From the IMG/VR virus record IMGVR_UViG_2526164596_000006: DNA of 4,469 nucleotides; one strand, 5' to 3'. Both the position numbers and the translations under genes were made by a program. Below are positions 1 through 4,469 of the stretch, one piece after another; positions within the stretch are counted from its first letter, which is position 1, and the number at the start of each line of letters is the position of its first letter. The notes under the pieces were generated by a model, which did not search any database, was not told the origin of the DNA, and worked only from the letters and a program-made list of their open reading frames with translations. Source of the DNA: a virus (taxonomy: Duplodnaviria; Heunggongvirae; Uroviricota; Caudoviricetes).

Positions 1-1571
1 ACGGTCTTCGCTGGTATGGCATCCGCACGGTGGAGCCTCACCATGACGGCACCGTGCACTGGCATATGATGGTCTTTGCTCATCCGGAAGAAATCGACAG
101 CATCGTGGCCATCACCCGCGATATTGCCATTCAGGAAGACCGCCACGAGCTGGGCAATGATATTACTCCGCGCTTTAAGGCGGAGTATGTCGACGGCTCA
201 AAAGGCACACCAACCAGCTATATCGCGACCTACATCGGAAAAAACCTGGACAGCCGGGCCGTGGATGGCATCGACCCGAAAACAGGCAAACCACGCGTTG
301 ACCACGAAACCGGAAAATCAATGGCCGAGAGCGTGGAACGCGCCATCGGCTGGGCGCGCCTTCACCGGGTCCGCCAGTTCCAGTTCTTTGGCATTCCCTC
401 CCGTCAGGTGTGGCGTGAACTCCGCCGCCTTGCCAGCCAGATGGCACGCAGCCCGGAAGGCCCGCAACGGCTGAAGGATGACGCAATGGATGCGGTTCTT
501 GCTGCCGCTGATGCCGGGTGTTTTGCCACCTACATTGAAAAACAGGGTGGCGTACTTGTTCCGCGCAAGGACTACCTGATTCGCACCGCCTACGACCTCG
601 CAGATGAGCTGAACGATTACGGCGAACAGAGCGTACAGATTTACGGGATCTGGTCACCACTCATCGGGGAATCCTCCCGTGTGTGCACGCATCCGGATAA
701 CTGGAAGCTGGTAAGACGTAAACCGGAAGCGGAAGACAGCGCCCGCGAAAATGGTTTTGACCTTCAGGGCGGCCCTGCCGCCCCTTGGACTCGTGGCAAT
801 AACTGTCCCCGTGTACAGGAAACGAACAACAACGGGGCAGAACAGCCGGAAGAACGGCCAGCACCGTGGCCGCAGCTCCCTGATGGCGTTGAAGTGAACG
901 AATGGATGCGCTCACTGAAACGGCACGAACGCCGGGCGCTGATGCGTTCGCTTCATGATAAACAGGCAAAAAACAGCAGTGATGAAATGCAGAGCTGGAC
1001 ACAGAGCCGCAAACAGCAGCGGCCTTTGCCTGATAACCACGAATTACTCGCTAAAGAATGGCGGGAGTCTGCCGAATCTCTCGGCCTGCATATCGGTGAA
1101 CAGCAGATGCAGCACCTGTTACGGGGCGGCAGCCTGTACGTTGACGGCAGCATCATTGCACCGCAGGGATTTGAAATTGTACGCAAACCGGATACCCGAC
1201 CGGACAGCCGGATCACGCAGCTCTGGCAGCGCCTGAGCCGTAACCACGGCGTAAGCAGCACGGAGATCCGCCATAACCCGGTCGCCGGCTATCTGGCACA
1301 GCTGGGGGCATCAGACCACGAAGCCGCCGCACGCCTGGCATCCACACTTCAGCAGGACCAGAACACCATGAAAACCCCCGTTACCGTGCTTTCTGACATG
1401 CTGCGCGCCATCCGTGACGCAGAGCACGCACAGAGAATCAGTGAAACCACTGAACGCGCCCGCCGCAAAGCAGACCTGCTGCGGGGTAGCCTGACCAGTG
1501 GAAACAAAAAACAGACAGAAACGGGATTCACAAAACCCGTAAATGAGCAAAAAACGCGCCGCGATATATGA
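1..1571 (+). CDS. A: Replication initiation endonuclease, P2 gpA family (HUH rolling-circle nickase); 5' end lies outside the window, about 522 C-terminal codons present
   Basis: The frame beginning at nt 3 is open to the window edge; the ORF track's start at 30 is a GTG, so the true start is upstream. Stop is TGA at 1569-1571. The translation has HWH (nt 57-65) followed about 50 residues later by SYIATYIGK, with Tyr codons at 219-221 and 231-233 (Y-x3-Y), the catalytic arrangement of P2/186 A-type nickases. A long hydrophilic C-terminal region follows. Confidence 0.8.
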   Translation, partial: GLRWYGIRTVEPHHDGTVHWHMMVFAHPEEIDSIVAITRDIAIQEDRHELGNDITPRFKAEYVDGSKGTPTSYIATYIGKNLDSRAVDGIDPKTGKPRVDHETGKSMAESVERAIGWARLHRVRQFQFFGIPSRQVWRELRRLASQMARSPEGPQRLKDDAMDAVLAAADAGCFATYIEKQGGVLVPRKDYLIRTAYDLADELNDYGEQSVQIYGIWSPLIGESSRVCTHPDNWKLVRRKPEAEDSARENGFDLQGGPAAPWTRGNNCPRVQETNNNGAEQPEERPAPWPQLPDGVEVNEWMRSLKRHERRALMRSLHDKQAKNSSDEMQSWTQSRKQQRPLPDNHELLAKEWRESAESLGLHIGEQQMQHLLRGGSLYVDGSIIAPQGFEIVRKPDTRPDSRITQLWQRLSRNHGVSSTEIRHNPVAGYLAQLGASDHEAAARLASTLQQDQNTMKTPVTVLSDMLRAIRDAEHAQRISETTERARRKADLLRGSLTSGNKKQTETGFTKPVNEQKTRRDI

Positions 1572-1620
1572 AGCGCGCATAAAACAGGCAAAAACGGGAT
1601 TTAAAAACCCCGTAAACGAT
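1507..1620. repeat. Two ~36-bp imperfect direct repeats, each with an internal inverted repeat (ACGGG-N9/10-CCCGT), with A-tracts spaced about every 10-12 bp; candidate parC-like centromere/operator for the downstream parMR
   Basis: Copy 1 at 1507-1543 (aaaacagacagaaacgggattcacaaaacccgtaaa) and copy 2 at 1581-1616 (aaaacaggcaaaaacgggatttaaaaaccccgtaaa). Copy 1 overlaps the last codons of gene A; copy 2 is intergenic, about 30 bp upstream of the parM start. Position matches where parC sits in type II partition loci. Confidence 0.4.
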
Positions 1621-1647
1621 TAATTAATCAACATAAGGAAAATCGAC

Positions 1648-2607
1648 ATGAAAATTTGTATCGACGACGGCTCCACCAACATCAAGCTGGCATGGACTGA
1701 GAACGGCGAACGCCGCAACGCCATCAGCCCGAACAGCTTCAAATCGGAATGGTCTGCGCCGTTCGGTGGCATGCAGCCCGCAAACTACATGCTTGATGGC
1801 GTGCGCTATGGTTTTGATCCGGTCAGCGATCGATTTGTCCAGACGACCGACACGCAATACCAGTACAGCGATGTGAATGTAATTGCCATTCATCACGCGC
1901 TGGTCAAATCAGGCATCACGCCACAGGAGGTGGATGTGGTTGTCACCCTGCCACTGAGCGAGTATTTCGACACAAACGCACAGCCGGACATGGCCAACAT
2001 CAACCGCAAAAAAGCGAACGTTATGCGCCCGGTGGAGTACCAGAACGGCGAAGCATTCACTATCCGTAACGTGCGGGTTATGCCTGAATCCATTCCGGCT
2101 GGCTTTAAGGCACTGGCTGACATGAGTCCGTTTGAATCCCTGCTGATTGTGGATTTGGGCGGAACCACGCTGGATGTGGCAAAGGTTCAGGGGCAACTGG
2201 CAGGTATCAGCCAGGTGTTTTGCGATCCACACGTAGGCGTTTCTCTGATGGCCGATGCCGTACTGTCGGTGATGGCCACTAACGGTATGCGCACCAGTCA
2301 CCACATCGCCAATACCATTATCGAACATCGCCATGATGAAGCCTGGCTGCGCCAGCACATCCACAATGACGCGCATTACGACAGCCTGATGGCGGTTATT
2401 CGTGAAAAGGAAGAAACACTGAAACAACGAGTGATCCGCGCGCTGGCGGGTTTTTCGGGTTACGGGCGGGTGATGGTTGTCGGTGGCGGGGCGGAGATTG
2501 TGGCACCCGCTATCCGCGAAGCCTGCGGAGTTAATGCGACTTTCATCGCGGACGGGGTGCCACAGTTTGCTCTGGTTAATGGGCTGTACGCAATGGACAA
2601 GGAGTAA
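1648..2607 (+). CDS. parM: ParM/StbA-family actin-like plasmid segregation ATPase (319 aa)
   Basis: ATG at 1648 preceded by AAGGA at 1635-1639. The N-terminus MKICIDDGSTNIKLAW...ISPNSFK...YQYSDVNVIAIHHAL closely parallels R1 ParM as I recall it. All three actin-fold nucleotide-binding motifs are present: IDDGSTNIK (phosphate 1), IVDLGGTTLDV (phosphate 2), MVVGGGAEIV (adenosine). Length matches ParM (~320 aa). Confidence 0.9.
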   Translation: MKICIDDGSTNIKLAWTENGERRNAISPNSFKSEWSAPFGGMQPANYMLDGVRYGFDPVSDRFVQTTDTQYQYSDVNVIAIHHALVKSGITPQEVDVVVTLPLSEYFDTNAQPDMANINRKKANVMRPVEYQNGEAFTIRNVRVMPESIPAGFKALADMSPFESLLIVDLGGTTLDVAKVQGQLAGISQVFCDPHVGVSLMADAVLSVMATNGMRTSHHIANTIIEHRHDEAWLRQHIHNDAHYDSLMAVIREKEETLKQRVIRALAGFSGYGRVMVVGGGAEIVAPAIREACGVNATFIADGVPQFALVNGLYAMDKE

Positions 2608-2611
2608 ACCA

Positions 2612-2923
2612 ATGACGACACCAACCAGACGGATAAGTTTCTATCTGAAGCCCGCCGCCGTCAAGAACGAAGGCGAAGCATGCACCTGGCTGGACAGCCT
2701 TACACCAGAAGCCCGCAAAAGCGGCCAACGTGTGGCTTTTCTGGCCGGGCTGGCACTTCTGAAAATGAATCCGGCAGAGGCTTACCGACTGGCTGCATGG
2801 GCTGACGATGAGGCGTTATCAGTGACACAAACCAGGACAGAACGCCCCGCGTCACAGCCAGTACCAACCTCACAGATAACCAGTCGGATGGCCGGAAATA
2901 TCAGGGCGTTATTTCCCGAATAA
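2612..2923 (+). CDS. parR: ParR/StbB-family centromere-binding adaptor (103 aa)
   Basis: ATG at 2612 sits 4 nt after the parM stop, with AAGGAG at 2599-2604. The ORF track's longer version starting at 2477 overlaps parM and is rejected. RRISFYLKPAAVKNEGEACTWLDSLTPEARKSGQRVAFLAGLALLKMNP parallels R1 ParR (RRTIAFKLNP...LDSIPQGERSRLNRAALTAGLALY, from memory), and the C-terminal IRALFPE matches ParR's LRSLFPKE. Gene order parM then parR is canonical. Confidence 0.8.
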   Translation: MTTPTRRISFYLKPAAVKNEGEACTWLDSLTPEARKSGQRVAFLAGLALLKMNPAEAYRLAAWADDEALSVTQTRTERPASQPVPTSQITSRMAGNIRALFPE

Positions 2924-2928
2924 CACAA

Positions 2929-2952
2929 CATCAGGGCGCATCCGCCCTGATG
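2929..2952 (+). promoter_or_regulatory. Perfect 10-bp-stem hairpin (4-nt loop) between parR and the downstream gene pair; possible attenuator, processing site or operator
   Basis: catcagggcg (2929-2938), loop catc (2939-2942), cgccctgatg (2943-2952). A third copy of the arm, atcagggcg, lies at 2900-2908 inside the last codons of parR, allowing an alternative pairing. The downstream tract is only weakly T-rich (actttaat), so this is not a textbook intrinsic terminator. Confidence 0.4.
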
Positions 2953-2986
2953 ACTTTAATCCGGGAACATAAACAAGGGGGACACA

Positions 2987-3319
2987 ATGCAACACATTGA
3001 CAGAGAAAAAGCGCAGCGACTGATTGAGCGGATGGAAGCGCTGGCGAAAGAAGAAAATGTCAACATCCAAAAAATAGCTGAATGTGGCCAGATAGTTCTT
3101 CGTCGTGAAAAAGACCTCAAACAACTGATGTCTGGCGAAACCAGCAAAACATGGACTTCAGGCGAGGAGACGATTTATTGCAGCTTCTGCAATAAATCTC
3201 AGTACGAAGTCACAAAGGTGATTGCCGGACCGTCTGTTTGCATCTGCAATGAGTGCGTGGATTTGTGCAATGAAATTATCAGGAGAGAAGTGACAGACAA
3301 AAAGGGAAAAAACGCATGA
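2987..3319 (+). CDS. Small protein with a C-terminal ClpX-type C4 zinc-binding domain (110 aa); N-terminal ~60 aa of unknown function
   Basis: ATG at 2987 with a strong SD (AAGGGGG at 2975-2981). Residues [40 protein letters not shown] align almost residue-for-residue with E. coli ClpX N-domain [40 protein letters not shown] (from memory), conserving all four Zn-ligand Cys (CSFC ... CNEC). No AAA+ module follows; the protein ends 15 residues later. Confidence 0.8.
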
Positions 3320-3654
3320 ACAGAAAACAAAAACAAGAGTTGAAATACTTTTTACGTAAAGAAATTGCCAGGCTTGAAGATGCAGAATCACAATCATCAG
3401 AAATTCCGTTCGGAATGGATATCAACGACGCCCGTATGCTCCAGGCATACCGCATAGCTCAGGCTGCACTACAGGCAAAACCGTCAGATGGACTGGTTAG
3501 AGCAGTACGATTCTATGAACTGGTAAAGCGTGAGAATCCGCCAGCCGAAACCGGAGCATGGAAAGACGCTGTTGACTGGGTACTCAAAGAGGCTTGTCAG
3601 GTTGTAAACACTGGCATCAAAGGAGACCTAGCCCAGCCTGCATCAAAGCTATAG
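3316..3654 (+). CDS. Hypothetical protein (112 aa), translationally coupled to the ClpX-zinc-finger gene
   Basis: Its ATG (3316-3318) overlaps the upstream TGA (3317-3319) as ATGA; SD-like AGGGAA at 3304-3309. Predicted to be largely helical and charged ([24 protein letters not shown]...). I recognise no domain. Stop is TAG at 3652-3654, followed directly by a terminator. Confidence 0.6.
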
Positions 3655-3664
3655 AAATGAGCCA

Positions 3665-3692
3665 AAACGCCCTCTTCCAGGGCGTTTATTTC
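3665..3692 (+). terminator. Rho-independent terminator closing the parM-parR-zf-hyp cassette
   Basis: aaacgccct (3665-3673), loop cttcc, agggcgttt (3679-3687), then a T-rich tail (atttc). It starts 10 nt after the gene-4 stop. On the minus strand the hairpin is followed by TTTTGG, so it may act in both directions. Confidence 0.7.
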
Positions 3693-3694
3693 AA

Positions 3695-3721
3695 TGCACA
3701 ATAGTGCACAAATTTGCACAA
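3695..3721. repeat. Three direct TGCACAA heptamers at exact 10-bp phasing (a fourth copy at 3787-3793)
   Basis: TGCACAA at 3695-3701, 3705-3711 and 3715-3721, followed by a T7 tract. Helical phasing suggests a binding site for a multimeric DNA-binding protein, for example in packaging/cos recognition or regulation. Confidence 0.5.
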
Positions 3722-3785
3722 TTTTTTTGAACGACTTTTTGCCCTTCCGGCCCGCGTGGCGGCTGGATCCGTCAGGGATCCGTGC

Positions 3786-3818
3786 GTGCACAAAAAAACG
3801 CGTTTTTTCTGCGCGCAG
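3786..3818. repeat. Cluster of perfect palindromes in the cos-proximal intergenic region
   Basis: gtgcac (3786-3791), a 16-bp perfect palindrome aaaaaacgcgtttttt (3793-3808), and an abutting 10-bp perfect palindrome ctgcgcgcag (3809-3818). Preceded by ggatccgtcagggatcc (3765-3781) and a GC-rich stretch containing gcgtggcgg (3754-3762), which partly resembles the 5' part of the 186/P2 cohesive-end sequence as I recall it. Confidence 0.5.
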
Positions 3819-4092
3819 GTGACGGGGGAACAGCCCGCGTTTCAGGGGGTAAATAGCATTCCCTGAACGATGTCGCAGAGATACAACAGAATGGCTGTAT
3901 TTCTCACGCTGAGCGTGAAAAAGACGTGAGGGCTTTTGATTTGATGGGGTGAAAGGTAAGGCCGTCAAAATCGCACTGAGACGGCGAGAACATGCAGTCA
4001 ACGCGGTGGGATTGCGTAAGAGTCTGACTGTCGATGATGGCAATCAGCAGGAAAGCGTCGTGAAATTATCTGATTGATACAGGAGCTGGAGA

Positions 4093-4121
4093 GCCGGGGC
4101 ATAAATTTTTTATGCCCCGGC
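4093..4121 (-). terminator. GC-rich hairpin about 25 nt downstream of the portal-like gene stop; candidate terminator or packaging-region structure
   Basis: gccggggcat (4093-4102), A/T loop aaatttttt, atgccccggc (4112-4121); the stem can extend to 13 bp. The flanking sequence is not strongly U-rich on either strand, so terminator function is uncertain. Confidence 0.4.
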
Positions 4122-4145
4122 GAAGCAGCAGACAAGCGAAGCGCG

Positions 4146-4469
4146 TCAGGATGTGGGCTGGGTGTCTAACAGTGCGTAAGGGTTAAAGCGGATCACCTTT
4201 TCGCCAAGCCAGTCATTGATGTGCTTCATGGCCTCCATGACGGGCATCAGTTCGTTAATTGCGTAAACCCGCGCGGCCTTCTCCACATCACCAAACGCAC
4301 TTTTTTCGCCCGGCATCGCCCCCATCAGTTGCGGCGGAACGCGGTGCGCAGCCAGCACATCATCACGGGATGCCGCCTTAACATTCATGAACTCATCCTT
4401 TGCGGTGATCTGCTGGAACGGCAAAATTTGCACCCCCTCTTTGCCCCCGTTGGGCGCATGGATGAGCAC
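4146..4469 (-). CDS. Phage portal protein, P2 gpQ-like, C-terminal fragment (N-terminus beyond the window end)
   Basis: The minus-strand frame is open to the window edge (first in-window codon GTG); stop is TGA (plus-strand tca at 4146-4148). AHRVPPQLMG resembles the (F/G)VPPxLLG motif I recall from Phage_portal-family proteins. Convergent orientation and position after the A-distal non-coding region match P2 gene Q. Confidence 0.55.
   Translation of the reverse strand: MLIHAPNGGKEGVQILPFQQITAKDEFMNVKAASRDDVLAAHRVPPQLMGAMPGEKSAFGDVEKAARVYAINELMPVMEAMKHINDWLGEKVIRFNPYALLDTQPTS

Follow-up and report, generated by a model that had tools for sequence, protein, structure and literature searches.

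The ParMRC partition system of plasmid R1 and the IncF plasmids is arranged in the order parC, parM, parR, and the C-terminal tail of R1 ParR is the element that binds ParM. Partition loci have also been described on elements that are normally integrated. In the SXT/R391 integrative and conjugative elements (ICEs), the type II locus srpMRC acts on the excised, rolling-circle-replicating form, is strictly conserved across the element family, and is expressed only together with excision and replication functions (Carraro et al. 2015, PMC4489591); SrpM is only a distant relative of R1 ParM, and no ParR domain can be recognized in SrpR (PMC4489591). In prophage CGP3 of Corynebacterium glutamicum, an actin-like ATPase is co-transcribed with an adaptor whose binding sites lie ahead of the operon (the AlpAC/alpS system; PMC4446434); the pair is induced early after excision, ties the circular phage DNA to filaments, and is required for the phage DNA to replicate efficiently (Donovan et al. 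2015, PMC4446434). Burkholderia phage KS14 is a P2-like plasmid prophage encoding RepB, ParA, and a serine recombinase, and plasmid DNA was recovered from its lysogens (Lynch et al. 2010, PMC3091744). Here, we analyzed a window of 4,469 bases (the whole stretch of DNA under study, from IMG/VR record IMGVR_UViG_2526164596_000006), which forms the right end of the early region of a P2-like prophage closely related to phage P88 and carries a parMR cassette at 1648-2923. On balance, sequence and analogy lead us to think that the cassette would serve as a ParMRC machine within the P88-like replication module, acting on the free circular phage genome after infection or SOS-triggered excision.

The cassette resembles R1 ParMRC in gene order, in the full-length homology of its ParM (46.5% identical to IncF ParM, with identical nucleotide-binding motifs), in the Pfam family and C-terminal tail motif of its ParR, and in having cis sites in two groups around a central stretch of ~50 bp just upstream of parM. 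It differs in sitting on an integrative phage rather than a plasmid, in carrying two 20-bp palindromes 73 bp apart instead of two sets of five direct 11-bp iterons, in having one site inside the upstream gene and no clear promoter between the sites, and in its shorter ParR (103 aa), which is only 28% identical to R1-type ParR. The best functional analogy for the P88 parMR is srpMRC, which is likewise a partition locus on a normally integrated element, though that element is an ICE and not a phage, and the P88 proteins are clear ParM and ParR members when set against the published description of SrpM and SrpR. AlpAC could be a second analogy, as an actin-like ATPase and adaptor on an integrated prophage, but its host is Gram-positive, its phage is unrelated, AlpC belongs to a different Alp family, and function is experimental in CGP3 while we consider the genes alone. 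KS14 shares P2-like virion genes and a partition function with the P88-like phages; it has type I ParA, RepB, and a serine recombinase, whereas P88-like phages have type II ParM, gpA only, and a tyrosine integrase, and are integrated.

The presence of parMR in P88-like phages is already known. RefSeq annotates both genes in P88, as "plasmid segregation protein ParM" and "partition protein." In Pfeifer 2021, P88 is listed as a phage that might be episomal as well as integrative, and "plasmid-like replication genes" are reported from a screen and left unnamed. Rousset 2022 described a putative partition system for roughly one in four P2-like phages of E. coli, with StbA plus Plasmid_stab_B arrangements at the gpA-gpQ hotspot in its tables. 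The paper describing P88 leaves the parM and parR genes unmentioned, and a limited literature search found no experimental follow-up on P88-like parMR. To this we add the prevalence of the cassette and its ratio of chromosomal to plasmid locations, its synteny across prophages, the selection acting on parM, and the two-palindrome centromere. Its unusual features are a phage-borne lineage and a minimal, two-site putative centromere.

RESULTS

ParM and ParR are full-length members of the type II family

The interval 1648-2923 runs exactly from the start codon of parM to the stop codon of parR, with both genes on the plus strand. The first, parM (1648-2607), encodes an actin-fold segregation ATPase of 319 aa and has an AAGGA Shine-Dalgarno sequence upstream of its ATG. 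The protein matches both Pfam halves end to end (StbA_N, 2.7e-82; ParM C-terminal domain, 1e-68) and aligns over its full length, residues 2-316, with crystallized R1 ParM (1mwk, E = 1.2e-92). Its motifs are the same as those of R1, namely DDGSTNIK (6-13), MPESIPAG (145-152), DLGGTTLD (169-176), and GGGAE (279-283), a set that covers the phosphate-1, connect-1, phosphate-2, and adenosine motifs of the actin fold, and D169 pairs with R1 D170 in the alignment. The second gene, parR (2612-2923), starts 4 nt past the parM stop codon with its own AAGGAG Shine-Dalgarno sequence and encodes a small predicted centromere-binding adaptor of 103 aa; its true start is the ATG at 2612 and not the TTG at 2477 that a mechanical open reading frame (ORF) list gives. 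ParR is assigned to Pfam Plasmid_stab_B at 4.4e-24 (84.6 bits, with the cut-off at 25 bits) and to phrog_2515, "partition protein," at 6e-58. Set beside seven other ParRs, of the R1 type and from prophages, it retains the predicted DNA-binding block at its N terminus (R-R/K-I-x-F-x-L-x-P ... R-x-A-x-x-A-G-x-A-L), and all eight sequences end in a shared N-[AI]-x-x-[LM]-[FI] motif in the C-terminal tail; this motif reads NIRALF here and aligns with the R1 tail KKNAMKLIN. At the level of sequence, ParM and ParR are clear members of the type II (ParMRC) family. The initial annotation had described a complete, functional-looking ParM/ParR cassette with upstream repeats and with all nucleotide-binding motifs of ParM retained, and we agree on each of these points: both genes are intact and conserved.

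Selection on the two genes was estimated from pairwise comparisons. In five close comparisons, the dN/dS of parM was 0.04-0.14, and parM is under purifying selection. For parR, dN/dS was 0.39-0.59, with very few substitutions.

Two palindromes form a candidate centromere upstream of parM

Two direct repeats of 42 nt, 83% identical to each other (family D1), lie upstream of parM on the plus strand. Repeat 1 (1505-1546) falls inside the last codons of gpA, and repeat 2 (1578-1619) falls in the intergenic gap between gpA and parM. Each of these parC-like repeats holds one 20-bp palindrome-like site, ACGGGATTCACAAAACCCGT at 1521-1540 (site 1) and ACGGGATTTAAAAACCCCGT at 1594-1613 (site 2), spaced 73 bp apart. 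The sites are both conserved and unique to this location. Allowing up to two mismatches, they are the only matches in the 44.5-kb parent prophage locus, where 0.15 would be expected, and the 35.8-kb P88 genome has no further match with up to one mismatch. Most relatives have near-perfect palindromes with the consensus ACGGGATTT-AA-AAATCCCGT. Across three lineages (P88, Plesiomonas, and Hafnia), the sequence has drifted, and exactly two GGG-N10-CCC elements are present in each, at offsets of -127/-54, -133/-61, and -130/-57 from the parM ATG and thus 73, 72, and 73 bp apart; the background frequency is 0.2-0.5 such elements per 300 bp. The palindromes stay beside parM where extra ORFs part it from gpA. 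We also observed that each window palindrome carries one substitution, at the same position of the right arm, changing AATCCCGT to AAACCCGT and AACCCCGT; this parallel change might reflect co-variation with the phage's own ParR.

The two sets of five iterons that flank the par promoter in R1 are absent upstream of the window parM, where there are two palindromes only, though that array architecture defines the R1 subtype and not type II systems generally. Plasmid and ICE relatives of the cassette (our loci L013, L014, and L015), as well as R1-type relatives, have arrays of ~11-bp direct iterons, and the phage version would by comparison be a much reduced parC. Two further resemblances were considered and set aside. 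The R1 iteron core AAACCC appears in the palindrome halves by coincidence, as the consensus arm of the relatives is AATCCCGT and the AAACCC and ACCCC of the window are single substitutions of it. A-tract phasing, or an intrinsic bend, between 1495 and 1625 was rejected because the spacing is irregular, from 5.5 to 31 nt.

A promoter scan found no consensus sigma-70 promoter between or near the sites in the gpA-parM gap, and a terminator-like scan found no plus-strand terminator between gpA and parM. The lack of both in the gap suggests that parMR is co-transcribed with the early replication operon. Downstream of parR, the terminator-like scan identified a hairpin with a perfect 10-bp stem at 2929-2952, to which no strand is assigned (DNA fold of -12.7 kcal/mol, z = -7.4). 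This is likely a terminator, with a weak T-run on the plus strand.

The cassette belongs to an integrative P2-like phage

The window is 97.4% identical at the nucleotide level to phage P88 (Xuanwuvirus, Peduoviridae) over its full length. Its best match, at 99.9% identity, lies on the chromosome of E. coli O111:H21 strain 15A, in a prophage with an integrase beside yecA, a repressor region, and a full P2-type structural module; the P88 reference record has the same gene order. Annotation of the prophage and of P88 gives the P2 order of genes, with gpA, portal, terminase, GPO scaffold, P2-family capsid, integrase, C, and cox all present. With integrase, C, cox, and structural genes around the 99.9% chromosomal match, the original identification of the host as an integrative P2-like phage is borne out, and the alternative that the DNA is a plasmid with a phage-like rep gene is ruled out, the best match being a prophage on a chromosome. 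In the best-matching genome (NZ_CP077477.1), three places match the window, and tail and baseplate genes occur a second time in inverted orientation (35481-44469 of our locus L001), which suggests two or three P88-like prophages or a rearrangement.

The nearest relatives of the cassette are carried by other P2-like prophages

A scan of species-representative genomes returned only three near-identical loci, and divergent relatives were reached by protein search and contig look-ups. The closest ParMs outside the P88 group come from Plesiomonas (62.6% identity), Hafnia (61.9%), Serratia (58.3%), and Enterobacter (53.6%), and all four are encoded in P2-like prophages in the same slot between gpA and the portal gene. 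The order in this slot is gpA, zero to two small ORFs, parM, parR, variable cargo, sometimes ogr, and then the portal gene. Plasmid ParMs reach at most ~52% identity once six records that hold the P88-like locus itself (at least 95%) are excluded. In the phage collection, the only ParM homologs were those of the P88 group (at least 95%) and that of D6, a P1-like phage-plasmid (48%). Two relatives at 49-50% identity lie on chromosome-sized contigs, one in an ICE with TraG and TraU as neighbors and the other in an integrated plasmid with Rep3 and ParAB as neighbors. A check of the nearest relatives thus finds them to be borne by P2-like prophages and not by plasmids. It had been proposed that the cassette might be plasmid-derived cargo being repurposed; as a recent event, this is unsupported, given synteny in four other genera at 54-63% identity and plasmid ParMs at no more than ~52%.

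In a neighbor-joining tree, P88, Plesiomonas, and Hafnia ParMs group together with a bootstrap of 100/100. A wider clade of 16 prophage ParMs, which adds Serratia and Enterobacter, has a bootstrap of 50/100, and we therefore claim monophyly for the P88, Plesiomonas, and Hafnia group only.

Homology among the P88-like phages runs through parR and breaks at ~2949, directly after the hairpin. Since the cassette is constant beside gpA and the cargo is variable past ~2950, the cassette behaves as core genome and not as hotspot cargo. One further P88-like locus of the E. coli type, with a ParM 97% identical to that of the window, was seen in a contig assigned to a Gram-positive organism ("Vagococcus sp. 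WN89Y," NZ_JBQPOM010000071.1), which is almost certainly assembly contamination.

The cassette is common in E. coli and almost always chromosomal

For the genome survey, the segment scored as parMR was window 1500-2955. It was present in 1,303 of 5,426 complete E. coli genomes (~24%), including UTI89 and O55:H7 CB9615, and 1,276 of the 1,304 E. coli records carrying parMR held at least 80% of the locus. The initial annotation had considered a partition cassette unexpected in a phage family that lysogenizes by integration, which overstates the case for genes that occur in about a quarter of complete E. coli genomes, are annotated in RefSeq, and have been flagged by two papers.

In these complete genomes, parMR occupied 1,449 chromosomal places and 2 plasmid places. 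Among the 72,556 plasmid records of PLSDB, there were seven matches at 95-99% identity, and most of the plasmid matches listed are very large records with an inserted or mis-assigned prophage. The sole plasmid record that is a complete, stand-alone P88-like phage genome is NZ_CP148288.1 (34,461 bp, circular). Its phage matches a chromosomal copy in another isolate from the same study at 100% identity across the 12.5 kb compared, and this circle may therefore be an excised or induced form. A second small record, NZ_CP049283.1, was rejected as evidence of an episome, as it is a linear, IS1-interrupted assembly fragment that lacks the start of parM. The RefSeq annotation of P88 contains no plasmid-type initiator (RepA/RepB-type) and only gpA, a result based on annotation and not on a profile scan of every ORF. 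Taken together, the 1,449:2 ratio and the lack of an annotated initiator besides gpA indicate that integration is the rule and that stable life as a plasmid is rare at best. The usual state of the element is the integrated one, and the suggestion that it might persist as an extrachromosomal phage-plasmid, if meant as its normal lifestyle, finds no support in these counts, in the single circular phage of PLSDB, or in the annotated replication genes.

A gene for a Hok/Gef-family toxin was also seen in P88-like genomes (34928-35068 in P88; 1291-1431 in locus L003). P88-like genomes thus hold homologs of both classical R1 stability modules, parA (ParMRC) and parB (hok/sok). Such a toxin could penalize loss of the excised element.

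Genes and features around the cassette

Upstream of the cassette, the window begins within gpA, whose start lies to the left of it. The C-terminal part of this P2-type replication endonuclease occupies 1-1571 on the plus strand, with the stop codon at 1569-1571; it matches Pfam Phage_GPA at 1.7e-29 and is annotated by RefSeq as "replication endonuclease" in the 99.9% match. The Phage_GPA match stops at residue 76 of the 513-aa window ORF, and ~440 residues follow it. A separate ORF of 167 aa lies between gpA and parM in the Hafnia prophage (L008, 7453-7956). The first parC site is inside these coding sequences.

The cargo at 2987-3654 is not part of the partition system and is replaced by other genes in other P88-like phages, where XF1762-family, DUF4760, or Ea22-like genes, or an S8 peptidase with an AAA ATPase, are seen at the same place. 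Here, it consists of an orphan ClpX-type C4 zinc-finger ORF of 110 aa (2987-3319, plus strand; Pfam zf-C4_ClpX, 2.9e-16) and an overlapping ORF of 112 aa (3316-3654, plus strand) that matches PHROGs families of unknown function. As speculation, a free ClpX zinc-finger domain might interfere with substrate or adaptor recognition by ClpX. Within the second ORF, ~140 bp at 3484-3627 have copies that are 88-93% identical, both in unrelated phages (T7-like podophages, lambdoid phages, and phages of roughly 78 kb) and in many plasmids of ~42-146 kb, several of them near 92 kb. From its distribution, this segment resembles a mobile protein domain in wide circulation (phrog_660 and phrog_26213, function unknown).

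A non-coding stretch (3655-4145) then precedes the portal gene. In this stretch, TGCACAAT occurs twice at 3695-3722, where palindromes overlap, and two copies of GGATCCGT are found at 3765-3783; there are also strong hairpins, at 3665-3687 and 4093-4121. A P2 cos sequence used as a probe had no match in the window, and an Rfam scan likewise gave no match. The C-terminal part of the portal protein gpQ (4146-4469, minus strand), identified by the RefSeq annotation of the parent locus, marks the far side of the gpA-gpQ hotspot; Pfam Phage_portal matches its 107-aa fragment at 5.2e-08 and 32.9 bits, below the gathering cut-off of 39.1 bits.

DISCUSSION

The reading toward which we lean is that parMR acts on the circular phage genome while that genome is free. 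P2-type replication yields plasmid-like monomeric double-stranded circles. From the sequence and the described analogs, we infer a course of events in which ParR dimers would bind to the pair of 20-bp palindromes that immediately precedes parM and, through their conserved C-terminal tails, would capture the ends of ATP-ParM filaments, whose growth would push paired phage circles apart. Expression of parMR would probably come by read-through from the early gpA operon, and the relevant times would be the interval after infection and before integration and the period after SOS-triggered excision and gpA-driven replication. P88 can be induced from its lysogen with mitomycin (P88 paper). The benefit to the phage might be better-placed and more efficient replication and packaging, as in AlpAC of CGP3, or the keeping of an excised or not-yet-integrated genome through cell division, as in srpMRC of SXT/R391. 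Stabilization of the replicating or excised genome was one of several options raised initially; it is the one that the evidence favors, and that evidence bears on it by inference and analogy.

Several observations weigh against this reading. The P2 lytic cycle lasts ~30-40 min without cell division, and classical partition has no obvious use there. In place of the paired palindromes, the loci of Serratia and Enterobacter show a single large inverted repeat, and one centromere model therefore does not cover the whole clade. Two palindromes are also far fewer than the 10 iterons of R1, and they might have a role as operators only. A weak candidate promoter, TTTAAA-N17-ATTAAT, read by eye, overlaps site 2 and would allow parMR to be expressed in the lysogen. 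Finally, a large protein database contains some truncated ParM clusters, so some copies of the gene may be decaying; at least one phage record (H88/H89) has a fragmented parM.

Among the rival explanations, a facultative phage-plasmid fares best, though we consider it unlikely. Here, P88-like phages would at times enter stable lysogeny as low-copy plasmids, for example, where attB is missing or occupied, with segregation by ParMRC and leaky replication by gpA. This idea was raised by Pfeifer 2021 and Rousset 2022, and it draws on the circular 34,461-bp record filed as a plasmid, on the Hok/Gef-family toxin gene, and on the existence of KS14 as a P2-like plasmid prophage. Against it stand the 1,449 chromosomal and 2 plasmid places, and the finding of one genuine phage-sized circle in 72,556 plasmids, the other small match being linear and riddled with IS1. 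The phage of that one circle is also found integrated elsewhere. In addition, P88 is annotated with the gpA rolling-circle endonuclease only, whereas KS14 has RepB and ParA, and integrase, C, and cox are all present. A full dual lifestyle of P88-type Peduoviridae, in which low-copy circles would be kept over many generations when integration is unavailable, replicated through rolling-circle initiation by gpA at a low level, partitioned by a phage-adapted ParMRC through the two operators, and backed up by Hok/Gef, seems to us quite unlikely. Were it true, a quarter of E. coli P2-like prophages would be cryptic phage-plasmids that surveys miss, with the integrated state dominating.

We regard as very unlikely a role for the cassette in competition during lysogeny, in which the ParR and parC of a prophage would hinder incoming elements with related centromeres, such as P88-like circles or ParMRC plasmids, through partition incompatibility or repression of the rival's par operon. 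The gpA-gpQ hotspot at which the cassette sits does hold old, tin, and many defense systems, the possible promoter over site 2 is compatible with expression in a lysogen, and the drift of the palindromes together with the divergence of ParR (dN/dS of 0.39-0.59, at few sites) would fit diversification of specificity. However, the cassette is fixed beside gpA in a core-like manner, with the variable cargo lying past the hairpin at ~2950. Such a device would need ParR and parC only, yet ParM is the most strongly conserved part, and ParM is ~46-52% identical to plasmid ParMs, whose centromeres look different. ParM and ParR also have no PADLOC match, and we reject an anti-phage defense system on this ground and because the cassette is constant in the P88 group, variability starting only at ~2950. 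That the cassette is an inert hitch-hiker, captured once from a plasmid and without function for the phage, is scarcely credible, since the truncated and fragmented parM copies that would speak for it are set against strong purifying selection on parM, synteny kept across five genera at 38-46% ParM divergence, conserved cis sites, and the packaging-size constraint under which phage genomes exist.

For annotation pipelines and plasmid-detection tools, these data mean that ParM and ParR on a contig should not be counted as evidence of a plasmid. The two-palindrome centromere would be a minimal natural parC, useful for asking how few ParR sites suffice. If positioning or partitioning of a transient circle proves true, the P88-like phages would offer a tractable E. 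coli model of a phage-encoded cytoskeleton, and P2-like phages would join the SXT/R391 ICEs and CGP3 as integrative elements that need plasmid-style segregation while they are excised.

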